NCBI GenBank assembly: GCA_043798935.1
Contig: JAZDOC010000006.1
Span: 24,996 to 88,995 of the forward strand
DNA length: 64,000 nt
DNA from: Patescibacteria group bacterium
GTDB lineage: Bacteria; Patescibacteriota; Patescibacteriia; UBA9570; JAHJKD01
Direction of reading: 5' to 3'
In this document: one piece after another, positions 9,406 through 25,966 of the stretch
How positions within the stretch are numbered: position 1 is the first letter of the stretch
Layout of the letters: each line of letters starts with the position of its first letter
The notes under the pieces: generated by a model
Database searches by the model: none
What the model saw: the letters and a program-made list of their open reading frames with translations, nothing else
What the model was told of the DNA's origin: nothing
Translations under genes and position numbers: made by a program

Positions 9406-9426
9406 GTTTTTATCCACACGAATCCC

Positions 9427-9455
9427 TTGACAAAGCAAAAAAAGCATGATAAGGT
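9427..9455 (+). promoter_or_regulatory. candidate sigma70 promoter (TTGACA-17-TAAGGT with upstream TG)
   Basis: Perfect -35, 17-nt spacer, weak -10; 40 nt upstream of the GT4 start at 9496. Confidence 0.35.
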
Positions 9456-9495: not shown

Positions 9496-10644
9496 ATGAA
9501 AATCGCAATGATTGGTCAAAAAGGAATCCCTAGTATCTACGGCGGTATTGAAAAACACGTCGAAGAGCTTAGTGTTCGTTTAGCCGATTTAGGCAATAAA
9601 GTTTATGTTTATACTCGTGCTTATTATACAGATAAAAACAAGAAAAAATATCAGACAGTAAATTTAATTAATTTGCCCACAATTCACACCAAACATTTAG
9701 ATGCCATTTCTCATACTTTGTTTTCAAGCGTTCACGCTTTATTTCAGGACTACGATATTATTCATTACCATGGCGTAGGCCCTTGTTTGTTATCATTTAT
9801 ACCAAGAATACTTAAACCGCAAGCTAAAGTAGTCTGCACTTTTCATTGCATCGACCGTCATCATCAAAAATGGGGGTGGTTTGCCAGATTCATGTTGTGG
9901 TTAGGTGAGCGCGCCGCCTGCACTTTTGCTCATGAAGTAGTAACAGTTTCCAAAAATCTGCAAAGCTATACTTATGAGGTTTATAATTGTCGATCACGTT
10001 ATATTCCTAACGGCATTAGTGAAGTACAAAATATCAAGCCATCCATCATTAGCCAAAAATACGGTTTAGATGGAAATGATTATATAGTAGTAGTCAGCCG
10101 TTTAATCCCGCATAAAGGAATTCATTATTTAATTGAAGCTTATCAAGGTTTAATTACTGATAAAAAATTAGTGATCGTGGGCGATTCTTCTTTTACAGAT
10201 CCTTATGTGCGAGCTTTAAAAGAACAAGCTGGTGGTAGTGATAAAATTATTTTTACTGGCTTTGAGTCTGGTCAAACTCTGGCTGAACTTTTTTCTAACG
10301 CTTATGTATATGTCCAACCATCTGAATCGGAAGGCCTTCCCATTTCAGTTTTAGAAGCCGCGGTTTATGGCAAGTGCGTGTTAGCTTCTGATATCCCGGC
10401 TAATATGGAAATTGTTCGAGAATGCGGTTTACATTTTGAAAACACAAATGTATCGGATTTACGTGAAAAATTAAAATTCGTTTTAGAAAATCCAGACGTT
10501 GTAGCCAAAACCGGTAAATACGCCAGAAAATATGTTTTAGAAAATTATAATTGGACTGATATTGTTAAAAAAACAGTTCGCATGTATCGCAAGCCATTAA
10601 AAGCGAATGCCCGAGAATTTTCCGGTTATAAAGCAACGGCTTAA
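9496..10644 (+). CDS. glycosyltransferase family 4
   Basis: ESEGLPISVLEAAVYGKCVLASDIPANMEIV GT4 signature (E-x7-E). Confidence 0.8.
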   Translation: MKIAMIGQKGIPSIYGGIEKHVEELSVRLADLGNKVYVYTRAYYTDKNKKKYQTVNLINLPTIHTKHLDAISHTLFSSVHALFQDYDIIHYHGVGPCLLSFIPRILKPQAKVVCTFHCIDRHHQKWGWFARFMLWLGERAACTFAHEVVTVSKNLQSYTYEVYNCRSRYIPNGISEVQNIKPSIISQKYGLDGNDYIVVVSRLIPHKGIHYLIEAYQGLITDKKLVIVGDSSFTDPYVRALKEQAGGSDKIIFTGFESGQTLAELFSNAYVYVQPSESEGLPISVLEAAVYGKCVLASDIPANMEIVRECGLHFENTNVSDLREKLKFVLENPDVVAKTGKYARKYVLENYNWTDIVKKTVRMYRKPLKANAREFSGYKATA

Positions 10645-13953: not shown

Positions 13954-15261
13954 ATGAAAATTAGCGTTATTGGAACCGGATATGTAGGATTAGTATCCGG
14001 AACATGTTTAGCAGATATCGGTCATCAAGTTAATTGCTTGGATATCGATGAACAAAAAATAAAAAATTTAAACAGTGGAATCATTCCAATTTATGAACCC
14101 GATCTAGAGCAGTTAGTAAAACATAATATTGAAACCGGACGATTAACTTTTTCTACATCATTAAAAGATAATCTTAATGATAGTGAAGTAGTTTTTATCG
14201 CTGTGGGAACACCTTCAGCTGAAGACGGCCAAGCCGATTTACAGTATGTCTATGCTGTGGCTGAAGAAATTGGAAAGAATATCAATGGTTATAAAGTGAT
14301 TGTTGATAAAAGTACAGTACCGGTTGGTACGGGTAAAGAAGTGGAAAATATCATTAAAAAATATTATAACGGAGAATTTGATGTAGTGTCATGCCCGGAA
14401 TTTTTACGTGAAGGTTCAGCAGTCAAAGATTTTTACGAACCGGATAGAATAGTAATCGGCGTGCGAACTGAAAAGGCCGGAAAAATTATGCAGGATGTTT
14501 TTAAAGATGTTAAAGGAGAAAAATTTATTACTACTGTTGAAAGCGCAGAGCTAATTAAGTACGCTTCTAACGCTTTTTTAGCCACTAAAATTTCTTTTAT
14601 TAATGAAATTGCACATATCTGTGAAAAAGCCGGTGGTGATATCGAAGAAGTGGCTTATGGTGTAGGCTTAGATCAAAGAATCGGCTCTAAATTTTTAAAA
14701 GCCGGCATTGGCTGGGGAGGGAGTTGTTTTCCAAAAGATGTTAAAGCCTTGGATCAAATTGCCGGTAGCCATGGTTATGATTTTAAATTATTAAAATCGG
14801 TAATTGAAGTGAATAAACACCAACGCGATCATTTTGTTGATAAGATTAATAATTTTTTTAGTAACGATTTAAAAGGAAAAAAATTATGTGTTTTAGGCTT
14901 GGCGTTTAAAAATAATACCGACGATATCCGCGAATCGGCCGCGATTGACATTATAAAATTATTAATTCCTAGCGATGCTGATATTCATGCTTTTGATTAT
15001 GAAGCCACGGAAAACGCCAAACGAGTTTTAGGAGATAAAATAACTTATGCCGTTGATCCTTACGAAGCTATTAAAGACAGCGATGCTGTTTTAATAGTGA
15101 CGGAATGGAAAGAATTTAAAGAGCTGGATTGGTCGCGCATTCGCACATTAGTAAAAAATAAAGTTGTTTTTGACGGTCGTAATTTATTAAGCCGATCCAA
15201 AATGAAAGAGCTTGGTTATGCGTATTTTAGCATTGGAAAAAACGGCGAACATTTACAATAA
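13954..15261 (+). CDS. ugd: UDP-glucose 6-dehydrogenase
   Basis: MKISVIGTGYVGLVSG N-terminus, catalytic GGSCFPKDV motif, 435 aa. Confidence 0.85.
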   Translation: MKISVIGTGYVGLVSGTCLADIGHQVNCLDIDEQKIKNLNSGIIPIYEPDLEQLVKHNIETGRLTFSTSLKDNLNDSEVVFIAVGTPSAEDGQADLQYVYAVAEEIGKNINGYKVIVDKSTVPVGTGKEVENIIKKYYNGEFDVVSCPEFLREGSAVKDFYEPDRIVIGVRTEKAGKIMQDVFKDVKGEKFITTVESAELIKYASNAFLATKISFINEIAHICEKAGGDIEEVAYGVGLDQRIGSKFLKAGIGWGGSCFPKDVKALDQIAGSHGYDFKLLKSVIEVNKHQRDHFVDKINNFFSNDLKGKKLCVLGLAFKNNTDDIRESAAIDIIKLLIPSDADIHAFDYEATENAKRVLGDKITYAVDPYEAIKDSDAVLIVTEWKEFKELDWSRIRTLVKNKVVFDGRNLLSRSKMKELGYAYFSIGKNGEHLQ

Positions 15262-15265
15262 AAAT

Positions 15266-16204
15266 ATGAAACTGATTGTTAATATCCCTTGTTATAATGA
15301 GGAAGAAAATTTAGCCAGTGTTATTAAAGAGATCCCGCGATCGATTGAAGGTTTGGAATCGGTGGAAGTTTTAGTTTATGATGATGGTTCAACCGATGGT
15401 ACCGCGCAAATTGCAAAAAGCGCTGGGGCTGATTATGTAATTTCTCATAAAAAAAACAAGGGTTTGGCCGCCACGTTTAAAGATGCAATCTGGGAAGCAG
15501 TAGTACGCGGAGCTGATATTATAGTTAATACCGACGGCGATAATCATTATGATCAGTCCAAAATTGCCACTCTAATTGAACCGATTTTAAAAAAACAAGC
15601 CGATATTGTAATTGGCTCCAGAAAGAACCTGAATACAAAAAATAAAAATTTAAACAAATTTGGCAGTTTTGTAATGACTAAATGGGCTGGTATGCCTAAG
15701 TATGATGTTTCGACCGGATTTCGAGCGTATAATCGTGAAGCCGCATTAAAAATAGGAATATATTCACCACATACTTATTGTCATACTACTTTATTTTCGG
15801 CTCAAGATTTAAATTTAACAGTTAAACAAATTGCCATTGCTGATAGACCTGTTTCCAGACCATCAAGATTAATTAAAAATGTGCCTGATCATATTTGGAA
15901 AGCCGGCTGGAATATTGTTGGTAATGTGGTGATATTTAGATCTATGCGTTTTTTCGGATTTACCGGAGCGTTGTTGTTAATTTTGGGTTTATACCCCATG
16001 CTTAGGTTTGCGTATTATTATATTGTCGAGCAAGGTAATGGCCATATTCAATCTTTAATCGTTGGATCCATGTTAATGATGATTGGATATTTAAACATTG
16101 TTTTAGGACTGCTTGGCTCTTCAATCGGTTGGTCTCGAAAAGTATCTGAAGAAGCATTATATCGAATTAAAAAGATTGAATTAGATAAAAATAAAGAAGA
16201 GTAA
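15266..16204 (+). CDS. GT2 polyprenyl-phosphate glycosyltransferase (GtrB/ArnC/DPM-synthase-like, with C-terminal TM helices)
   Basis: NIPCYNEEENL, DDGSTDGT, TDGDNH (DxD); two C-terminal TM helices; start set at ATG after ugd stop. Confidence 0.7.
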   Translation: MKLIVNIPCYNEEENLASVIKEIPRSIEGLESVEVLVYDDGSTDGTAQIAKSAGADYVISHKKNKGLAATFKDAIWEAVVRGADIIVNTDGDNHYDQSKIATLIEPILKKQADIVIGSRKNLNTKNKNLNKFGSFVMTKWAGMPKYDVSTGFRAYNREAALKIGIYSPHTYCHTTLFSAQDLNLTVKQIAIADRPVSRPSRLIKNVPDHIWKAGWNIVGNVVIFRSMRFFGFTGALLLILGLYPMLRFAYYYIVEQGNGHIQSLIVGSMLMMIGYLNIVLGLLGSSIGWSRKVSEEALYRIKKIELDKNKEE

Positions 16205-16226
16205 TAAAACACTTCGATTCTTTTTT

Positions 16227-17249
16227 ATGAAAATACTATTTATTACCAGAAAGTATCCGCCGCAAATTGGAGGCATGGAAGCCTTTTCTTTTGGACTGAT
16301 TAATAATATTAAATGTGATAAAGAAATAATCGCTTTAAATAAAAAGCAAATTCATTTGCTTTGGTGGCTACCTTATGCATTAATTTTAACTTTATTTAAA
16401 GCGCGTCGTGTCGAGCACATACATTTAGGTGACGGACTGTTAGCGCCGATTGGATTTTTAATAAAAAAAATTTACCGCAAACCGGTATCAGTGACAGTTC
16501 ATGGATTAGACATTACTTATAATAATTTCATTTATCAAAATATAAATGTTAGAGCTCTGAAACATTTAGATAAAATTATTTGTGTTAGTAGTAGCACTAA
16601 GCAGGATTGTATTGAAAAAGGAGTTAGCGAAAGTATAATCGAAATTATTCCAAATGGTATTGATATAAATAAATTTTCAATTTTCAATTTTCAATTTTCT
16701 TCTTCACAAAATAAAATTTTACTAACTGTGGGTCGTTTAGTGAAAAGAAAAGGCGTGGAATGGTTTATTAAAGAAGTAATGCCTAAATTAGATCAAAATA
16801 TTATTTATTTGATTGCCGGTGATGGTCCGGAAATGCAAAATATTCATCATCAAATAATAAATTTAAATTTAGAACACAGAGTAAAATTATTAGGCAGAAT
16901 TAGTCATGAAAAATTAATCGAACTATATAATACAGCTGATCTATTCATTATGCCTAATATTCATGTAAAAGGGGACACAGAAGGGTTTGGAATTGTGGCG
17001 CTTGAAGCCGGCGCTTGCGGATTAATGACTCTAGCAACTGATATTGATGGTATCAGAGATGTTATTAAAGATAATGAAAATGGGTATTTATTGCCAGATA
17101 GAGATGCTCTAATGTGGGCTAATAAAGTGAATGAAATTATCAAGAGTGATTATGAAAGAATCAAAATATGTTCTTATATTCATAGGAATTATTCTTGGAG
17201 AGAAATAACTAATCAATATAAAAAAATATGGGAATCGAAAAAACATTAA
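16227..17249 (+). CDS. glycosyltransferase family 4
   Basis: EGFGIVALEAGACGLMTLATDIDGIRDVIKDNENGYLL. Confidence 0.75.
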   Translation: MKILFITRKYPPQIGGMEAFSFGLINNIKCDKEIIALNKKQIHLLWWLPYALILTLFKARRVEHIHLGDGLLAPIGFLIKKIYRKPVSVTVHGLDITYNNFIYQNINVRALKHLDKIICVSSSTKQDCIEKGVSESIIEIIPNGIDINKFSIFNFQFSSSQNKILLTVGRLVKRKGVEWFIKEVMPKLDQNIIYLIAGDGPEMQNIHHQIINLNLEHRVKLLGRISHEKLIELYNTADLFIMPNIHVKGDTEGFGIVALEAGACGLMTLATDIDGIRDVIKDNENGYLLPDRDALMWANKVNEIIKSDYERIKICSYIHRNYSWREITNQYKKIWESKKH

Positions 17250-17629
17250 GAACCGGTTTAGCAGCGGCTTTATTATCATCTGCGCCTGACGTCTTGGCCG
17301 GAAGAATAGATACTAATGAGGCTACAATTCATGCTGAAAAAAAGGAGTTTATGGATGCGTATAATGGAGCCATAGTAAACGAACCTGGTGCAACGCAGAT
17401 GTTTATCGACCTAGCTAATACATATTGGTATTCAGATCTGTTAGATTCAAATGAAGCGAAAAATTTCTGTGTTTGTATTTTAGAAGTCGCGGAAAATAAT
17501 AATAAAGCGTACGATGCGCTGAAATTAATAATATCAGATAGTAATTTTGCATTGAATTTACATGCAACTACTGCAGAAGAGACAAAATCATTACGACTAA
17601 GATTAGGTTTATTATTAGCTAATAAATAA
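17228..17629 (+). CDS. hypothetical protein
   Basis: 133-aa ORF with a 4-nt-type overlap to the upstream GT4 and balanced composition; preferred over the antisense ORF at 17329-17706. Confidence 0.35.
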   Translation: MGIEKTLRTGLAAALLSSAPDVLAGRIDTNEATIHAEKKEFMDAYNGAIVNEPGATQMFIDLANTYWYSDLLDSNEAKNFCVCILEVAENNNKAYDALKLIISDSNFALNLHATTAEETKSLRLRLGLLLANK

Positions 17630-17644
17630 AATTTTAATAATATA

Positions 17645-17673
17645 TTGACAATGCACTCTAATAGCACTACAAT
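17645..17673 (+). promoter_or_regulatory. consensus sigma70 promoter TTGACA-17-TACAAT
   Basis: Perfect -35 hexamer, exact 17-nt spacer, 5/6 -10 hexamer; sits in the only sizeable gap before the sat operon. Confidence 0.6.
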
Positions 17674-17683
17674 AAGAGTGTAT

Positions 17684-17706
17684 TTGATTAACACAAGGTT
17701 AATCAA
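17684..17706 (+). promoter_or_regulatory. perfect 9-bp inverted repeat TTGATTAAC-N5-GTTAATCAA (operator-like) just downstream of the predicted TSS
   Basis: Seen directly in the sequence; lies at about +5 to +27 of the promoter above. Confidence 0.5.
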
Positions 17707-17725
17707 AATATTTAAATAATTAAAG

Positions 17726-17758
17726 TTATGACCCAGCTTGCCTAGGTCAGAATAAAAA
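17726..17758 (+). other. conserved leader motif copy A (TTATGACCCAGCTTGCCTAGGTCAGAATAAAAA), ends 4 nt before the ATG at 17763
   Basis: 31/33 identical to a second copy at 51603-51635 with identical spacing to a start codon. Confidence 0.5.
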
Positions 17759-17762
17759 TTTT

Positions 17763-17987
17763 ATGGCCGAAATTATTATCCCTAATGATTTGAAAGAATC
17801 GTTAGAACAAATTGTAAAAGATTCTAATGAATTTAGCAGTGTTAATGATTATGCTACTTACATTCTTAAACAAGTAGCCGATAAGAAAAAAGCTTCTCAA
17901 ACACAATCTCATCAAGATCAGGCTTATTCTAAAGAAGATGAAGCTAAAATAAAAGAACGACTTCAAAATCTTGGTTATCTAGATTAA
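17763..17987 (+). CDS. small hypothetical protein, possible ribbon-helix-helix (CopG/Arc-like) DNA-binding protein
   Basis: 74 aa; N-terminal beta-strand-like IIIPNDLKESLEQIV followed by helices; first gene after the promoter/palindrome. Confidence 0.35.
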   Translation: MAEIIIPNDLKESLEQIVKDSNEFSSVNDYATYILKQVADKKKASQTQSHQDQAYSKEDEAKIKERLQNLGYLD

Positions 17988-18029: not shown

Positions 18030-19178
18030 ATGATTCAACCTCATGGAAATGTTTTAATAAACAGAGTGTTAAAACCTGAAGATGCTTTAAAAGCCAAAAT
18101 TAAGGCTGATGGTTTAAAGAAGATTAAAATAGACGAAGAGTTAGTAAAAGAAGTTAAAAATATTGCGCGCGGTGTTTTTTCTCCGCTCGATGGTTTTATG
18201 AATAAAGCTGATTTTGAAAGCGTAGTAGAAAATATGCACTTGGCAAATGGCGTGGTTTGGCCTTTACCGTTTGTTTTAGATATTAACGATCAAGATGCAG
18301 AAAGTATTGCTGTAGGAGATCAAATTGCTTTAATAGATGATAATAACGAACCGATTGCCTTAATGAACGTGGAAGATAAATATAATTTTGACAAAGATAA
18401 TTTTGCTGTCAAAGTTTTTAAAACTAATGAATTAGCCCATCCGGGTGCTAAAATGGTGAGCGAAATGTATGATATATTAATTGGCGGTGAAATTGAATTA
18501 ATAGATAATTCTAAAGAGCCGTTTAATAGTTTCAATTTGGATCCGCTAGAAACCAGAACATTATTTAAAGAGCGCGGATGGAATACTGTCGTAGGTTTTC
18601 AAACCAGAAATGCTCCTCATTTAGCTCATGAATATATTCAGAGGTGTGCGCTCGAAATTTGCGATGGTTTATTTGTTAATCCGGTAATCGGCAAGAAAAA
18701 ATCCGGTGATTTTCAAGACCAGGTAATTTTAGATTCATATCAGGCGTTAATTAATAATTTTTTTCCTAAACAGAGAGTAGTAATGAGTATTTTACCGCTT
18801 AAAATGCGCTATGCCGGTCCGCGGGAAGCAATTTTTCACGCTATCGTACGCAAGAACTTTGGTTGTACTCATTTTATCGTGGGGCGCGATCACGCCGGCG
18901 TTGGTAAATATTACGGCACTTATGAAGCGCAAGAAATTTTCGATACAATCGAAGATTTAGGCATGACGATTTTAAAATTTGAACATTCATTCTATTGTAA
19001 AAAATGCCGGGCATTGGGAACCGCTAAAAATTGTCCGCATACCGACGAAGATCGTATTGGACCTTCAGGAACAATTATCAGAGAAATGATATCTAAAGGC
19101 GAACTGGTGCCAGAAGAAATTATGCGCCCGGAAATTTCTAAGGTTTTAATTGATGCCGATAAGACTTTTGTTGATTAA
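18030..19178 (+). CDS. sat: sulfate adenylyltransferase (ATP sulfurylase)
   Basis: GFQTRNAPHLAHEYIQ and VGRDHAGVG signature motifs; 382 aa homo-oligomeric type. Confidence 0.85.
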   Translation: MIQPHGNVLINRVLKPEDALKAKIKADGLKKIKIDEELVKEVKNIARGVFSPLDGFMNKADFESVVENMHLANGVVWPLPFVLDINDQDAESIAVGDQIALIDDNNEPIALMNVEDKYNFDKDNFAVKVFKTNELAHPGAKMVSEMYDILIGGEIELIDNSKEPFNSFNLDPLETRTLFKERGWNTVVGFQTRNAPHLAHEYIQRCALEICDGLFVNPVIGKKKSGDFQDQVILDSYQALINNFFPKQRVVMSILPLKMRYAGPREAIFHAIVRKNFGCTHFIVGRDHAGVGKYYGTYEAQEIFDTIEDLGMTILKFEHSFYCKKCRALGTAKNCPHTDEDRIGPSGTIIREMISKGELVPEEIMRPEISKVLIDADKTFVD

Positions 19179-19187
19179 AAATAAAGC

Positions 19188-20183
19188 ATGAATGAATTAG
19201 AGCAATTAAAAAATAATCGAAAAGGATTGATTATCCATCATTGGGATACGGACGGCTTGTGTTCGGCGGCTTTGCTCAAACGTTTTTTTATTGCATTAAA
19301 TTCTAAGATAGCGCTTGATATAATGCCACCGACCATTAATAATTATTTTTTAACGGCTAGAGAATTCACAGAAATTAAACGCGCAAAATATGACTTCATT
19401 ATTACTTGCGATATAAATTTTCCGCCTAAAGTGGTTTTAGAACTCGAGGCCATTAAACCAAAAAAAGTATTTGTTTTTGATCATCATAAGCAAGATCCGA
19501 TTAAAGAAGTGCATTATTATAATCGGCGTTATCCTAGTAACACTTTAGTATTGGCTGAATATCTGGAATTAGATATGGATTTATTAATCAGCTTAGGTGC
19601 TATCGGCGATAAAGAGGAAAAAATAAAACAAGATAAACAATATTGGCCGTTAATAAATAAAGTATTAAATAATAATAATATAAATTTTGAGCAAGTATTA
19701 CAGATTAGAGATTTAGTTGACGCCAGTTACGTTATTAATGATGCAGATTTAATGCGGAAAGTCATTGATGTATTAGCCATTAATCCGTTATTAATCACTA
19801 AAAATGATGAATTGAAAAATTCATTAAATTTAATTCATAGTGAAATTCAAAGTAAAACAGAGCGAACACCAGATGAAATTATTAATGGGGATGTATTATT
19901 ATTTAATATTGAATCTAATTATAATATTTTATCTCAAGCTACCAGAGTTTTAGCTAGAAAATATCTGAATAAAATAATATTAACTTATTCAAAAAAAGGC
20001 GAGCAGACTAATATATACATTCGTCGTCAAGATTTAGATTTAAATTTATCACCACTTATAACTTGGGCCAGATCGCAGAAATTCAATTCCGGCGGAAAAG
20101 AAGAAGTTGTTGGAATAATAATTAATCAGGATTTTTCTAATATTAAATCTGATTTAGTCAATAAAATAAGAGAATTACTATGA
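19188..20183 (+). CDS. DHH-family phosphoesterase, NrnA-like (candidate 3'-phosphoadenosine-5'-phosphate phosphatase)
   Basis: IIHHWDTDGLCSAALL (motif I/II) and VFVFDHHKQD (DHH motif); about 330 aa with DHHA1-like C-terminal half. Confidence 0.65.
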   Translation: MNELEQLKNNRKGLIIHHWDTDGLCSAALLKRFFIALNSKIALDIMPPTINNYFLTAREFTEIKRAKYDFIITCDINFPPKVVLELEAIKPKKVFVFDHHKQDPIKEVHYYNRRYPSNTLVLAEYLELDMDLLISLGAIGDKEEKIKQDKQYWPLINKVLNNNNINFEQVLQIRDLVDASYVINDADLMRKVIDVLAINPLLITKNDELKNSLNLIHSEIQSKTERTPDEIINGDVLLFNIESNYNILSQATRVLARKYLNKIILTYSKKGEQTNIYIRRQDLDLNLSPLITWARSQKFNSGGKEEVVGIIINQDFSNIKSDLVNKIRELL

Positions 20184-21565
20184 GCCAAAAAAAATTATTT
20201 GTTTTGGGGCTTGATTGTGCCACGCCGCAATTTTTATTTGACGAGTATTTAGATGATTTGCCGACATTTAAAAAATTATTTTCTCAAGGAGCCTATGGTA
20301 AATTGCGAAGCACTATTCCGGCTATTACGGTTCCGGCTTGGATGAGCATGATGACAAGCCAAACCCCGGGAGATTTAGGAATCTATGGATTTCGTGGGCG
20401 GCGGGCCGGCTCGGGGTATAACGACATGTTTATTGCCAGTGCTGAGCATGTTCAATATAAAAAAGTTTGGGATTATCTAAACATGGCTGGATTAAAAACC
20501 GGCATGCTAAGCGTGCCGTTAACCTATCCGCCGCAGACCGTGGATGGATTTATGGTAAGCGGTTTTATGACGCCATCGCTGGAAAGTGAATTTACTTATC
20601 CCAAAGAATTAAAACAAGAAATTGCCGATGTGGTAGGCGAATATATTTTTGATTTTGCAAATCGTTCAACCGAAGCTCCGGAAAAGATTTTGGAAAAAAT
20701 TTATGAGATGACCGATAAACGACATAAATTAATCAAGTATTTTATCAAAAACAAGCAGTGGGATTTTTTAATGATGGTAGAAATGGGCGTGGATCGGATT
20801 CATCATTACATGTGGAGCTATGTGGATCCAAAGCATCCTAAATTTCAGGGAGAAAATAATAAATTTAAAAACAGCATTAAAGAATATTATCAGCATATTG
20901 ACCGGCAGCTAAGTGAAATTTTAGATTTATTACCGAAAGAGTGTAGTGTTATGATAGTGTCTGATCACGGCGCTAAGGCCATGGATGGTATGTTTTTAAT
21001 TAATGAATGGCTAATTAAAGAAGGGTATTTAGTATTAAAAAATTATCCAACTAGCGTCACTCGGCTGGAAAAATGTGATATCGACTGGTCTAAAACCAAA
21101 GCTTGGGCTTGGGGCGGTTTTTATTCCCGCATTTTTATTAATGTTAAAAGACGCGATCCGGAAGGTATCGTGGAAGATTTTGAAACAGAGCGAGATTCAT
21201 TAGCCCGAAAATTAAAAGCCATAACCGATGATCACGGTAATAAATTAATAAACATTGTCGCACCGGCTAATGAATTATACAATGATCCCCAAGGCGATGT
21301 ACCGGATTTATTGGGATTTTTTGGAGATTTATCTTGGCGACCAGGCGGTACCGTCGGGCATAATAAAATTTATATTCATGAAAACGATACTGGCCCTGAT
21401 GATGGTGTGCACGATTGGAACGGAATATATGCTTTTTGGCAGCCCGAGAAAACCGGAAGCGGGTTATTGCCGGAGTCGAGTATTTTAGATATTGCGCCAA
21501 CTATTCTAAATTATTTTGGAGTGGATATCCCAAAAGATTTTAAGGGAAAAATAATTAATTACTAA
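20180..21565 (+). CDS. alkaline-phosphatase-superfamily protein, nucleotide pyrophosphatase/phosphodiesterase (PF01663-like)
   Basis: LFVLGLDCATPQF N-terminal metal/nucleophile motif, MIVSDHGA motif; paralog of 25914-27518. Confidence 0.6.
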   Translation: MSQKKLFVLGLDCATPQFLFDEYLDDLPTFKKLFSQGAYGKLRSTIPAITVPAWMSMMTSQTPGDLGIYGFRGRRAGSGYNDMFIASAEHVQYKKVWDYLNMAGLKTGMLSVPLTYPPQTVDGFMVSGFMTPSLESEFTYPKELKQEIADVVGEYIFDFANRSTEAPEKILEKIYEMTDKRHKLIKYFIKNKQWDFLMMVEMGVDRIHHYMWSYVDPKHPKFQGENNKFKNSIKEYYQHIDRQLSEILDLLPKECSVMIVSDHGAKAMDGMFLINEWLIKEGYLVLKNYPTSVTRLEKCDIDWSKTKAWAWGGFYSRIFINVKRRDPEGIVEDFETERDSLARKLKAITDDHGNKLINIVAPANELYNDPQGDVPDLLGFFGDLSWRPGGTVGHNKIYIHENDTGPDDGVHDWNGIYAFWQPEKTGSGLLPESSILDIAPTILNYFGVDIPKDFKGKIINY

Positions 21566-21571
21566 AAAAAT

Positions 21572-22177
21572 ATGACCGAACAAAAAGCAACAAACATCAC
21601 TTGGCATGATGGCGAAATTAATAAAAAAGAGCGTGAGCAGTTATTAAAACAAAAAGGAGTAATTTTGTGGTTTACGGGTCTTTCCGGATCTGGAAAGTCT
21701 ACTGTAGCTGTAGCTTTAGAAAAGAAGCTGTTTGAAATGGGTCACATTAATTACCGTTTAGACGGCGATAATATTCGCCATGGCCTCAATAAAGATTTAG
21801 GCTTTTCACCAGAAGATAGAGTAGAAAATATTCGTCGTATTGGTGAAGTATCAAAATTATTTGCCGATGCTGGCGATATTGTTTCGACATCATTTATTTC
21901 GCCGTATCTTAAAGATCGTGAGATTGTGCGTGATTTAGTTCCAGCCGGAGAGTTTATAGAAGTTTATGTAAAATGTTCGCTGGCTGAATGCGAAAAGCGC
22001 GATCCTAAAGGATTATACAAAAAAGCCCGCGCCGGAGAATTAAAGCAGTTTACAGGCATAGACGCGCCTTATGAAGAGCCAATTAACCCTGAAATGGTGG
22101 TAGAAACCGACAAACAGGCTGTAGAGCAAGTGGTGGATAAAATATTAGCTTATTTAAAAGAAAAAGGCATAATTTAA
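21572..22177 (+). CDS. cysC: adenylyl-sulfate kinase (APS kinase)
   Basis: P-loop [13 protein letters not shown], 201 aa, typical CysC length and motifs. Confidence 0.9.
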
Positions 22178-22259: not shown

Positions 22260-24017
22260 ATGTTAAAATCGTTACAACGTTTCTGGATAATTACAATTGT
22301 TATCTGTCTAATTTTAGGCGCATTTTTTTCATATATTTATTTTCAGGATCATGCTTGGGGTACCTGGGGAGACGATAGCGCCGGATACATTTATTTGTGG
22401 GGCAAAATGGATCAAAATAAAGATTTAGTTTATCAAGAGCCTTTAACCGTAGCGGCGCTTAAATTTTTTGGTAATGAAAAATTAGCACGCTGGACCACGC
22501 CGACTCATCATGAAATCATCTCGCCGTCGGGGTATGTCGCATCCAAATATCCGATAGGCCTTTCACAAATAATGCTATTGTTTTCTCGGCTCTTTCAAGA
22601 CGATAAGGCTATTTATTATGTCTTGCCATTACTAGCAACAATAAATTTAATTCTTGTATATTTAATATCACTAATATTTTTTAAAGACATTAAATACAAA
22701 CACTTTTTTAGTTTGTTGCCGGCCTTTATGCTGGGCCTGGCTAGCTTGTATTATAATTATGCTATTTCTCAGCCCATGCGGGAAATTCCGTCTATGTTTT
22801 TCTTATTGGCTGGTTATTTATTTTTATTGCTGGCAGTTGAATATTATGGTTCACAAAATCAAAAGAAAGATAAAATATTTTTTTATACTTTAATAATATT
22901 AGCATCATTATTTGCCGGCTATAGCTTAAACGTTAGAGAAACCAGTATCATGATTTTGCCGGCTTTTTTAATAATGTTGTTTAGTATATCTAATAGAAAT
23001 GCTGAGCCCCAAGAAAAAAATAAAAACATTAAGTTTAAAATTAAATTAGCATTATTAGCTTTATTAATGTTAATTATCGCTTATATACCGTCTTTTATTA
23101 ATTCGGCTGATATTACCCAATTTAAAGAAAAATTCAGAGCTAAAGATATCACGTCTATTGCCATTACTTCAAATTTTGATCATATCAGTTCATTTAGCTT
23201 GCAAAATGTTTTTAATAACCAGGGAAAATTCAGGCCCGGGCGCGGTGCTTTACCGCATTATTGGGGCGTAATGAATGATAATTTAGCTGTCTGGCCATGT
23301 TTTATTGTTCTAGCAATAATAGGACTATATTCTATTTATAAAAAAAATAAATGGCTATCGGCCAGTTTACTACTATGGATTCTGGGTGTATTAATAATTT
23401 TTTCTTTATGGATAAACCCTTATTCCAGATATATTTTGCCACTGTTTCCAATATTAGCCATTTGCGGAAGTTATGGATTGTATGCAGTGTGTTTTAAAAT
23501 TGTACCACATTTTTTCAAGAATAAACGCCTACAGTTTTTAGTTTGTTTAATAATATTATTATCTTTAATTATTTCATATCTACCGGCAATAATCGATATT
23601 AAAACTAATTTTAATGAAAATGAAGACGGCGAAGAAAAGTTGGTGTTTAAAGCAATCTCTGAAAATGATTTATTTAGTTTAAAGGGTTTAGGAGAAAAAA
23701 TTTATACTGATAATAAAACTGATAAACCGCCATTAGTGGTTTTTAGCGGTACTTGGCAATACGGAATTTCTGAAACTTTTGAAGCCCATACTGGAATTCA
23801 AGGTATCCACATGCCACTTGAAGACAAGAAAAATGTTTTCGATAAAGAACAGGTAAAAGATTTTTTTACCCAAGAAGTGTTTCCAAATTATAATGTATAT
23901 TTTTGGATAGACGCGACCAGTAAATCAAACAGCGTTGATTTTATTAATTATTTTAAAGTACAACCTAAATATTCTTATTCATTAACATTTGCTAACCCCA
24001 CTATTTATGGAAATTAA
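22260..24017 (+). CDS. multi-pass membrane protein, putative GT-C glycosyltransferase (ArnT/PMT-like)
   Basis: 585 aa, about 10 N-terminal TM helices with early acidic loop motif (WGDDSAGY), large C-terminal extracytoplasmic domain. Confidence 0.4.
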   Translation: MLKSLQRFWIITIVICLILGAFFSYIYFQDHAWGTWGDDSAGYIYLWGKMDQNKDLVYQEPLTVAALKFFGNEKLARWTTPTHHEIISPSGYVASKYPIGLSQIMLLFSRLFQDDKAIYYVLPLLATINLILVYLISLIFFKDIKYKHFFSLLPAFMLGLASLYYNYAISQPMREIPSMFFLLAGYLFLLLAVEYYGSQNQKKDKIFFYTLIILASLFAGYSLNVRETSIMILPAFLIMLFSISNRNAEPQEKNKNIKFKIKLALLALLMLIIAYIPSFINSADITQFKEKFRAKDITSIAITSNFDHISSFSLQNVFNNQGKFRPGRGALPHYWGVMNDNLAVWPCFIVLAIIGLYSIYKKNKWLSASLLLWILGVLIIFSLWINPYSRYILPLFPILAICGSYGLYAVCFKIVPHFFKNKRLQFLVCLIILLSLIISYLPAIIDIKTNFNENEDGEEKLVFKAISENDLFSLKGLGEKIYTDNKTDKPPLVVFSGTWQYGISETFEAHTGIQGIHMPLEDKKNVFDKEQVKDFFTQEVFPNYNVYFWIDATSKSNSVDFINYFKVQPKYSYSLTFANPTIYGN

Positions 24018-24678
24018 TAAAATCAGCGATATTAAAAAATATCAAAAAGCGCACGATAGTATTTTTTCCAAACTAATTACCCGTAAAATTTCAGTTATTT
24101 TTAGCTTTTATTTAATTAAGCGTTGGAAGCAGGTAACACCTAATAAAGTTTCGCTAATTTCTTTTATTACAGCCGTGGTAGCTATCGGATTATTTCTGGC
24201 TGATAATTATTTTGTTCGATTACTCGGCGTAGTTTTTTTACAAATTTCTTTTGCCTTAGATTGCTCTGATGGAGAAATTGCTAGAATTAAAGAAATGAGT
24301 TCTAAATTCGGCGCTTGGATGGATAGTGTTTTAGACAGGTTTAAAGAAGTAATGATGTTTGGAGCATTAACTTTTATTGTTTATAATTATGCCTGGGATA
24401 CGTCTGCTTTATTAATCGGATCTTTGGCAATAATTTTATGGCTATTAGTGGGATTTTTAAGAGAAGCAAAAAAGTCTTCCTGGCCGGAAAAGCGCACAGC
24501 GGAATTATATATTACTGATAACATATATATCGGTACCGTAGATACTACTATTTATTTTGTATGCTTTGCCATAATAATCCACATGGAATTGATGGCGTTA
24601 TGGGTTTTTGCAATTTTGGGATTAATACTACTAGTGAAACAAATTATTAGTGCTTGGCAGCTGGAGAAAAAGATTTAA
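23989..24678 (+). CDS. CDP-alcohol phosphatidyltransferase family protein
   Basis: D-x2-DG-x2-AR-x7/8-G-x3-D-x3-D signature: DCSDGEIARIKEMSSKFGAWMDSVLDRFKE; 6 TM helices. Confidence 0.7.
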   Translation: MLTPLFMEINKISDIKKYQKAHDSIFSKLITRKISVIFSFYLIKRWKQVTPNKVSLISFITAVVAIGLFLADNYFVRLLGVVFLQISFALDCSDGEIARIKEMSSKFGAWMDSVLDRFKEVMMFGALTFIVYNYAWDTSALLIGSLAIILWLLVGFLREAKKSSWPEKRTAELYITDNIYIGTVDTTIYFVCFAIIIHMELMALWVFAILGLILLVKQIISAWQLEKKI

Positions 24679-25966
24679 AATATTTTGTCTGCATAAACAG
24701 CAGAATTATAAAGAGAATAGATAAAGCGATAGTTGAAACTCTGGTTAATATAAAATTACTATTCGGAATGAAATTGTAAAATTCTGTCGAAATGAAAATA
24801 ACAACACTAATAATACTTAAATAAACTTTTTTTTCTTTTAAAAAATAATAGATTAACCATATTAGAATTGGTACGGTCCAAAATAAATATTGAGCATGAA
24901 CACTTTTATTGAACAATAGAAAAAAAGTCATCATCAGAGCATAATCATTTAAATATTGTTGCCCAGAAAGAGTAACTCTTTTTTTATACATTAAGTATAA
25001 AATTGTTGTAAAGAAAAAAATTGTTGATAAAAGAAATAAATCATCAAAAGTTGATATTAAAGTTTGATTGGGCAATGATAAAAAGGGCAAATAATTTTTT
25101 TTAATTGCGACTCGAACAAGGCTATATAAAGAAACTCCTGATGTTAGATCGTTTATGCCATTAACAAAATATTCCCAAAAAACATTTTTCCAGAAATAAT
25201 AAATGCCATTTATTTTAAAATACGGAACAGTCGCGATCACTAATAATATTGATGAAAAAACATAAGATGTCAGGGCACGCCATTGTTTTTTAATAATAAA
25301 ATATGGAACGAAAATAACCGGAAATATTTTTAAGGCTGTTGCTATAGCCAAGATACTGCCAGCCATAATCGGTTTTTTTTTATAAAGAGCAATAAAAGTG
25401 GTGATTAATAAAAATAATATCACCCCATTAATTTGGCCGGTTCCCATTAAGCTGTTAATTGGTGCGGCAAAACATAATAGAAGCAATGAAATGGAAAAAA
25501 GCGGATGGAATAATTTTTTTCGATCAATTAAAAAATAGATACCGGCATAATAAGTAATAATAAATAGCAGTGAATTAAACTAGAGCCAATAGTGAACTAA
25601 TATTTTAAATTTAAAATGCGAAAAAAATAAAAAGAAAAGCGCTGCTTGCGGTGGATATAAAAATTTTGTTCCGCCGCTATCGAATACTTTTCTAACTTCC
25701 GGTCTAAAAAACGGACGATTATAGATGTCGACGGCGGTTAAAGGAGTTAATATACCGGTTAATACTTTTGATGATGTATAATAAACGCACATATCGCTCC
25801 GACCATAGCCTTTGTTATTAAGATAAACACCGTTGTAATAAAGAAAAAAAATAATCGCTATTATAAACAGAACAATACAAAATATCTTATAAAATTTTAA
25901 TAAATTATATTTGTTAAAATTTAATGTCATTGATAAGATTATTAATCGCTTGTTTTTCAGTTTCAA
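24647..25966 (-). pseudogene. GT87/DUF2029-like GT-C membrane glycosyltransferase interrupted by one in-frame TAG (codon at 25580-25582)
   Basis: ORFs 25580..25966 and 24647..25486 are in the same frame; manual translation shows no other stop between them (amber then FNSLLFIITYYAGIYFLIDRKKLFHPFFSISLLLCFAAP...); N-terminal part has the YPPqAAlFF motif typical of DUF2029. Confidence 0.4.

Follow-up and report, generated by a model that had tools for sequence, protein, structure and literature searches.

A conserved inverted repeat over the -10 box and a ribbon-helix-helix-like protein as candidate regulators of a sulfate-activation operon in Patescibacteria

How is a sulfate-activation operon of a Patescibacteria group bacterium controlled, and which DNA element would the product of its first gene recognize? 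The operon is located on contig JAZDOC010000006.1 (assembly GCA_043798935.1), in a stretch of 64,000 nucleotides (positions 24,996 to 88,995, forward strand) that was analyzed as a whole and is referred to as the window; positions are numbered from its first nucleotide. A first-pass annotation of this DNA had proposed a self-contained switch, in which a 74-aa protein compatible with a ribbon-helix-helix (RHH) fold represses its own operon by binding a perfect 9-bp palindrome positioned right at and after the predicted transcription start. Comparison of orthologous upstream sequences indicated a different target. The conserved element is an inverted repeat extending over the -10 box and +1, and not the palindrome. 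Autorepression through this repeat is plausible, and a probability of roughly 0.55 was assigned to the reading that the protein is an RHH regulator dedicated to the sat-DHH-PF01663-cysC cassette, repressing its own sigma-70-type promoter via the inverted repeat.

The promoter was read from the sequence as the hexamers TTGACA and TACAAT with a spacer of 17 nt, as first annotated. The window DNA has a G+C content of 32%, and the number of sigma-70-like matches across it was at chance level overall (82, compared to 77.8 +/- 8.8 in shuffled sequence). Neither the promoter match nor the palindrome was compelling alone, and the case therefore rests on comparison with related sequences. Thirteen distinct orthologous upstream regions were compared, anchored on the -10 box. 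TACAAT was present in all 13 and TTGACA in 9 of them, and rho-independent terminators of the preceding gene were located upstream of the promoter in several loci (L001, L002, L009 and L012; loci are given by number). The promoter is credible because of this conservation and these terminators.

TACAAT and a GAGTGT core were invariant in 13 of 13 orthologues, in flanking DNA that was only 40-60% identical. The core is part of a longer element, A(A/G/T)(A/G)GAGTGT(A), in which the positions beside the core varied in 0-3 of the 13 orthologues. The -35/-10 spacer contained ACACTC(T/C)(T/A/G)AT in nine loci, which results in a 10-bp inverted repeat of the form ACACTCTTAT-N9-ATAAGAGTGT, found in the window at 17653-17681. 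The repeat was perfect (10/10) in L003, L093, L012 and L008, in L008 with a covarying TAAT/ATTA change, and 8/10 in the window. Four loci (L001, L002, L006 and L099) had no distal arm and a stronger proximal arm, (T)ACACT-N8-AGTGTA, with 5-6 of 6 positions paired, and in the four loci where the proximal arm was weak (2-4 of 6), a distal arm was always present and paired at 8-10 of 10 positions. The right arm was thereby paired in every orthologue, by the distal arm, the proximal arm or both. CACT-type sub-sites were located at 17654-17657 and 17665-17668 and, inverted, at 17677-17680, with a spacing of 11 and 12 bp. The 18-mer around the right arm was unique in the window.

The small gene that follows is an ATG open reading frame (ORF), at the place where it was first annotated. 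A protein identical to its product (100%) is found at NCBI from a Patescibacteria metagenome-assembled genome (MAG), labelled 'CopG family transcriptional regulator', and 12 close homologues with 54-85% identity were all encoded in the same gene arrangement. The last 20 residues were nearly unchanged among the close orthologues. Since 16 of the 20 codons varied synonymously, the constraint acts on the protein, and together with the homologues this constraint on the tail identifies the 74-aa ORF as a real gene. An HMMER search gave 160 representative clusters of proteins of about 65-80 aa, and a profile search gave at least 3,204 clusters (90% identity), with proteins from Archaeoglobus, Thermococcus and Pyrococcus abyssi among them. 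The family is thus large, and it is uncharacterized and mostly archaeal. Its members show the N-terminal pattern xIxIPxxL...F.SV..YV.YVL.QV, a variable acidic linker and, at the very C-terminus, the near-invariant tail (Y/F)SxEDEEK(V/I)KxRLxxLGY(L/I)(D/E). Of the 162 family proteins retrieved, most terminate in LGY(L/I/M/V) followed by no more than two residues, and most of the others in a close variant, for example MGY(L/I/V). The window protein, which terminates in YSKEDEAKIKERLQNLGYLD, belongs with them. A literature search for the tail motif returned casein peptides only. The tail is probably involved in dimer-dimer contacts or in sensing an effector or a partner.

Two further observations were made on the tail. 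The C-termini of CysD proteins, ...MMQKLRALGYM (L109, 2423-3226) and ...MEEKKRQGY(F) (P. syringae, PDB 1zun_A), resemble the K.RL..LGY(L/I/M) of the family tail, which could be due either to chance or to mimicry of a docking motif. Family units also occur as adjacent paralogues and as fusions (L014, L017, L040 and L104; proteins P0015, P0044, P0048 and P0141). Some fusions combine two or three RHH units, others have a pair of tandem tails, and others link a classical RHH domain to a family unit. Both the RHH part and the tail appear to behave as modules.

Support for the RHH fold came from structure prediction. AlphaFold2 (AF2), run with a 13-sequence alignment, gave a model with a pLDDT of 78, in which residues 1-7 are extended and two helices follow, the first at 8-20 and the second, a long one, at 27-69. 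The predicted single chain thus has a strand-helix-helix fold. RHH proteins were the best match to the predicted fold, with RHH antitoxins closest structurally. Profile matches to CopG, NikR and HP0222 in the PDB were weak and in the same register, and some family members matched RHH_1, RHH_5 or FitA, all below threshold. The first suggestion of an RHH protein is therefore upheld by the predicted fold and not by any curated RHH model above threshold. Sub-threshold matches of the protein and 140 relatives to UFL1_C, PG_binding and POTRA were rejected as homology and reflect the K.RL..LGY pattern and composition.

The gene order fits a regulator of sulfate activation, the role first suggested for the protein. 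The small gene is followed by sat, DHH, phosphodiesterase (PDE) and cysC genes, so the promoter does head a sulfate-activation operon, and the same order was found in all close orthologues. Gene order was also scanned with a trimmed family alignment as query, using one genome per species. The resulting 80 loci were mostly from Asgard, Thermoplasmata, Woesearchaeota and Methanosarcinales, and also from Aminicenantes, Clostridia and one more Patescibacteria MAG. In about 60 of these 80 distant loci the small gene was the first gene, directly before sat, PDE, DHH or cysC. In two loci, L109 and L104, the genes behind it are cysD, tauE and cysN, with CysD/CysN as the non-homologous type of ATP sulfurylase. 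Because the small gene heads both sat-type and CysD/CysN-type clusters, it is linked to the pathway and not to one enzyme, and this link, together with the fixed first position in Archaea and Bacteria, fits a regulator. The switch is not self-contained everywhere, since one sub-clade (L011, L097 and L098) has a small gene that overlaps its upstream neighbour and lacks a separate promoter. The closest species-representative match, with 58% identity and the same gene order and candidate operator, was L012 (CAZNEH010000032.1). It is labelled 'uncultured Gammaproteobacteria', with promoter, candidate operator and neighbours of the Patescibacteria type, and may be a mis-binned contig.

The repeat was also found outside the close orthologues. 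Metagenome contigs were scanned for CACTCNNATNNNNNTACAATNNGAGTGT, which gave 12 stretches representing 9 distinct loci, one of them the L093 orthologue. L104, L109 and L110 have TTTATATA, an archaeal-style TATA box, followed by the repeat and the leaderless ATG of DKVTIKIPRELYE-type family members. In the GC-rich bacterium of L106 the repeat is nested in a second one, ACACCCCTAT...ATAGGGGTGT, with a family-member gene, sat, a sulfatase-like gene and cysC downstream of it. The GC-rich locus L105/L108 has TTGACA-17-TACAAT and a perfect repeat before a TauE/SafE transporter gene. The other scan loci, L102/L111 (BrnT-like gene), L103 and L107 (cyclase-family gene), look like chance matches.

A second type of upstream element was found in other branches of the family. 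The CACTC...GAGTG repeat was present in none of the 78 archaeal-type loci, which encode YTT(V/I)SIP-type family members. In the last 100 nt before the gene, these members have TAATTA-like hexamers with a strict 10-bp period. The density of TAATTA was 17.1 per kb in the 100 nt upstream compared to 0.95 per kb elsewhere, and 96 neighbour distances were exactly 10 bp. Such spacing is what RHH dimers arrayed along one face of the helix typically show. A TAATTA array overlaps a TTGACT promoter in the Patescibacteria locus L029. In the window, TAATTA pairs were only marginally above chance, with none at the promoter studied here. Absence of the repeat from the 78 archaeal-type loci points to two candidate operator types in separate branches of the family.

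In the mechanism proposed here, which infers DNA binding, repression and a role of the tail from computed sequence features, conservation, gene order and predicted fold, the target would be the CACT-type sub-sites, which form an inverted repeat reaching from the -35/-10 spacer over the -10 box to +1. RHH dimers on sub-sites about 10-11 bp apart would exclude RNA polymerase. In the archaeal version, the dimers would occupy the DNA that separates the TATA box from the start site. The role of the tail would be in cooperativity or sensing.

Several results weigh against this mechanism. With respect to the fold, no Pfam or NCBIfam model matched the 74-aa protein above threshold, RHH_1 was matched below threshold by only 19 of 140 family members (best E 4e-4), and all PDB matches had E values above 0.2, those to CopG, NikR and HP0222 being 0.24-0.43. 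The AF2 model is of a monomer, in which no intermolecular beta-ribbon is in view, and AF2 of the natural two-unit fusion P0048, run with no alignment, reached a pLDDT of 47. With respect to DNA binding, the RHH part of the window clade is net acidic, and no basic residue is found on the putative DNA-reading strand MAEIIIP. Strand sequences are KKYTTISIP or DKVTIKIP in archaeal relatives and MAEIIIP, AQVNIP, ATITIP and similar in the window clade. The strand residues vary (E/Q/T/S, I/T/N) among orthologues with an identical repeat, and the window-clade strand differs strongly from that of KVTIKIP-type members carrying the same repeat. With respect to the repeat, no further copy of it or of its half-site was found in the 64-kb window, so no regulon is visible there. 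No family member is encoded within 13.8 kb of the repeat in L105/L108. Finally, the scan pattern forced TACAAT, and this hexamer is therefore uninformative in the archaeal matches.

A wider role for the same protein would be possible, but is rather unlikely. The family would then be a sulfate-activation regulator spanning both domains, with the tail as a sensor coupling repression to the state of the pathway and the RHH domain re-targeted in each branch, to CACTC...GAGTG repeats or to TAATTA arrays with a 10-bp period. The tail might bind adenosine 5'-phosphosulfate (APS), 3'-phosphoadenosine 5'-phosphosulfate (PAPS) or 3'-phosphoadenosine 5'-phosphate (PAP), or it might dock on a cassette enzyme in the manner of antitoxin tails, possibly mimicking the CysD C-terminus.

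The repeat could instead be the site of another sulfur-responsive regulator encoded elsewhere, with the small acidic protein of this clade not reading DNA but acting through its tail on a protein partner or a pathway metabolite, as an adaptor or co-regulator, much as the tails of RHH antitoxins bind toxins. This would account for an acidic RHH part with strand residues that vary while the repeat stays identical, and for a repeat in L105/L108 that is far from any family member. It would also suit a tail under strong protein-level constraint that resembles the C-terminus of CysD, in a protein whose closest structural matches are antitoxins with partner-binding C-terminal helices. However, a family member directly follows the repeat in no fewer than four unrelated lineages, the partner enzymes vary (Sat or CysDN, PDE and DHH present or not), and relatives of the protein have basic strands and periodic operator-like arrays. 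A separate regulator was for these reasons considered unlikely.

Binding of the RHH protein to the perfect palindrome at 17684-17706, as proposed in the first-pass annotation, was judged very doubtful. The palindrome does occupy a classic roadblock position right after the predicted start, and palindromes were found at the same position in L093/L094 and L003. It consists of TTGATTAAC (17684-17692), ACAAG and GTTAATCAA (17698-17706), and the pair T17683/A17707 lengthens the stem to 10 bp, giving what is here named hairpin HP1. It occurred once in the window, with a chance expectation of 0.21 when up to three mismatches were allowed; 17 of 100 shuffles gave at least one match, so that the palindrome alone is near chance in AT-rich DNA. 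Counterparts were limited to the window, L093/L094 (ATGATTAAG-ATAAA-CTTAATCAT) and L003 (GGCTAAG-ACAAG-CTTAGCC). The palindrome was thus present in only 3 of the 13 orthologous promoters, and the 10 promoters without it include those of L008, L092 and L099, whose proteins have the same N-terminal strand (AEITIP). Where it was present, three base pairs had changed on both sides, so that complementarity was conserved and sequence was not. Structure that is kept while the sequence drifts argues for an RNA hairpin rather than a protein-binding site. HP1 is probably not an operator but a 5'-terminal stem-loop of the mRNA, beginning 1-4 nt from the predicted end. Least probable of all was a polymerase requirement (promoter, discriminator or initial transcribed sequence) as the cause of the invariant block TACAATAAGAGTGTA, with an incidental upstream arm and no operator: the block does coincide with the -10 box and +1 and the -35 hexamer is conserved too, but this leaves the substitution of distal by proximal arm and the covarying TAAT/ATTA unexplained, the repeat recurs at archaeal-style TATA promoters and in GC-rich bacteria, and the one other promoter examined in the window (9427-9455) lacks the repeat.

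A second hairpin, HP2, was found further into the leader. HP2 recurs at one position in seven loci; the stem sequences are unrelated and the pairing is intact, and its pairs 4-8 showed 2-4 pair types each and few non-pairs. These pairs were counted by script; MAFFT had placed a gap in the 3' stem. Folding z-scores of the leader against shuffled sequences were -5.7 in L093 and -5.4 in L003, and weaker in the window (-1.5). Six orthologues had a short leader with neither hairpin. No Rfam covariance model matched at the gathering threshold in the whole window, and a match to a snoRNA model (E 0.07, opposite strand) was spurious. HP1 and HP2 were rejected as terminators, as no U-tract follows either of them. 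A leader ORF starting at ATG 17727 was also rejected, its frame and length not being conserved among the orthologues. In the proposed mechanism HP1 would be transcribed, and HP1 and HP2 would act post-transcriptionally, probably on mRNA stability or translation. Stem-loops at the 5' terminus stabilize bacterial mRNAs, for example in the ompA, aprE and ermC leaders. HP1 is similar to these in its position 1-4 nt after the predicted start and in its pairing, which is kept by compensatory changes. Unlike them, it is absent from most orthologues, and its start site was predicted from sequence.

Gene clusters of this kind have been described before. Pyrococcus yayanosii has the same five-gene cluster (PYCH_17520-17560), as do Ferroglobus, Aciduliprofundum, Aeropyrum and Ignicoccus (PMC8268124). 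PYCH_17520 was termed 'a putative copG transcription factor' that 'potentially regulates the pathway', and a TauE gene is found nearby (PMC8268124). In these clusters the DHH enzyme acts as a PAP phosphatase (PMC8268124; PMC10322725). The P. yayanosii cluster has the genes for CopG, ATP sulfurylase, DHH phosphoesterase (pApase), type I phosphodiesterase and APS kinase in the same order as here and an associated TauE/DUF81 transporter, and the present family includes Pyrococcus, Thermococcus and Archaeoglobus proteins. It differs in that the cluster studied here lies in Patescibacteria behind a sigma-70 promoter, and in that the published regulator is an annotation-based guess, with no described operator, family signature or binding. 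Literature searches on the regulation of the cluster returned only this guess (PMC8268124). Both the five-gene cluster and the idea of a CopG regulator have thus been published before. The present analysis adds the family signature, the candidate operators, the spread across both domains, a TauE gene as possible regulon member and a corrected operator assignment.

Among known regulators, the Arc/MetJ/CopG autorepressors (CopG 2cpg, Arc, MetJ and the N-terminal domain of NikR) are likewise small, first in their operon and of strand-helix-helix structure, which is predicted here, and the candidate sub-sites, about 10-11 bp apart, overlap the core promoter in the same way. MetJ also controls sulfur amino-acid metabolism. 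In contrast to these proteins, the 74-aa protein has no significant match to an RHH sequence model, an extra near-invariant C-terminal helix and tail and, in the window clade, no basic strand residues. The RHH type II antitoxins (ParD, 7etr_B, 6xrw_D, MazE4 and 1y9b) were the best structural matches and share the combination of RHH and a C-terminal helix, which binds the partner in those systems. They differ from the present system in what lies downstream, here metabolic genes. An antitoxin role was tried and rejected, since no toxin gene is adjacent: ATP sulfurylase is encoded downstream and glycosyltransferases upstream.

Little is known of the control of sulfate activation in Archaea and candidate-phylum bacteria. 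The family signature, the two candidate operator types and the TauE transporter as candidate regulon member give testable content to the CopG guess, and the bacterial version with its consensus sigma-70 promoter is directly assayable in E. coli. The main value of the analysis is corrective, in that a visually striking palindrome is not the conserved regulatory element. In the wider and rather unlikely reading given above, the family would be the first candidate regulator of sulfate activation in Archaea, and one shared by both prokaryotic domains.

Table 1. Features of the candidate regulatory region and of the sulfate-activation operon, in window positions.
Feature	Position	Strand	Basis or remark
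-35 hexamer TTGACA	17645..17650	+	sequence read; 9/13 distinct orthologous upstream regions
Distal left arm GCACTCTAAT (family consensus ACACTCTTAT), in the -35/-10 spacer	17653..17662	+	8/10 complementary to right arm; in 9/13 orthologues
Proximal left sub-site AGCACT (TACACT in some orthologues)	17663..17668	+	pairs with AGTGTA 17677-17682 across 8 nt
-10 hexamer TACAAT	17668..17673	+	sequence read; 13/13 orthologues
Right arm ATAAGAGTGT, overlapping the -10 end and the predicted start (~17680-17682)	17672..17681	+	GAGTGT in 13/13
HP1, the palindrome of the first-pass annotation	17683..17707	+	10-bp stem by folding; proposed mRNA 5'-end stem-loop
HP2, second leader hairpin TGACCCAG-CTTGC-CTAGGTCA	17729..17749	+	hairpin at same place in 7 orthologues
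74-aa RHH-like protein, invariant C-terminal tail YSKEDEAKIKERLQNLGYLD	17763..17987	+	ORF, homologues, alignment, predicted fold
sat (ATP sulfurylase; PUA_2 and ATP-sulfurylase domains)	18030..19178	+	E 5.7e-92
DHH phosphoesterase, probably PAP phosphatase	19188..20183	+	domain match; characterized homologous cluster members (PMC10322725, PMC8268124)
PF01663 type I phosphodiesterase / nucleotide pyrophosphatase family enzyme	20180..21565	+	E 3.6e-42
cysC (APS kinase)	21572..22177	+	E 3e-69

The cassette genes are closely spaced on the same strand, and sat follows shortly after the end of the regulator-like gene (Table 1). Genes for a UDP-glucose dehydrogenase and glycosyltransferases are located 5' of the cassette and a gene for a large membrane protein 3' of it, and this glycosyltransferase and membrane-protein neighbourhood was kept in orthologous loci. 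In detail, the neighbourhood (13954-17249 and 22260-24678) contains genes for UDP-glucose dehydrogenase, glycosyltransferases of families 2 and 4 (GT2 and GT4) and a 585-aa multi-pass membrane protein, and a CDP-alcohol phosphatidyltransferase-like gene. The neighbourhood suggests sulfation of a surface glycan or lipid. Because the cassette sits among glycosyltransferase genes, PAPS in this member of the Patescibacteria would seem to be made for surface-glycan sulfation rather than for cysteine synthesis. The cassette provides for PAPS synthesis (sat, cysC) and PAP removal (DHH), and no recognizable sulfotransferase or PAPS reductase was found in it. The PF01663 enzyme, a constant member, showed weak sulfatase-family matches; the published guess for its function is pyrophosphate hydrolysis.

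Some minor variation was observed around the cassette. A 133-aa ORF (17228-17629) between the GT4 gene and the promoter had no Pfam match, and none of the orthologous loci encodes a counterpart. The interval from the GT4 gene to the regulator gene is variable, and unrelated ORFs are found there in L002 and L009. In L011, a gene with PaaX_M and CRISPR_Cas2 Pfam matches (1593-2183) is inserted between sat and the DHH gene. The 9-mer TTATCCACA, which equals the DnaA-box consensus, was found in the window at 9410-9418, 8 nt 5' of the TTGACA at 9427-9432, after a terminator and before an ORF starting at 9496. It was also found upstream of the small gene in L008, L009, L095, L096 and L012, located about 6-8 nt 5' of the -35 hexamer where this was recognizable (L012 and L008) and 21 nt 5' of the distal arm in L009, L095 and L096. 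From these positions, TTATCCACA looks like a recurring upstream promoter element of this lineage.
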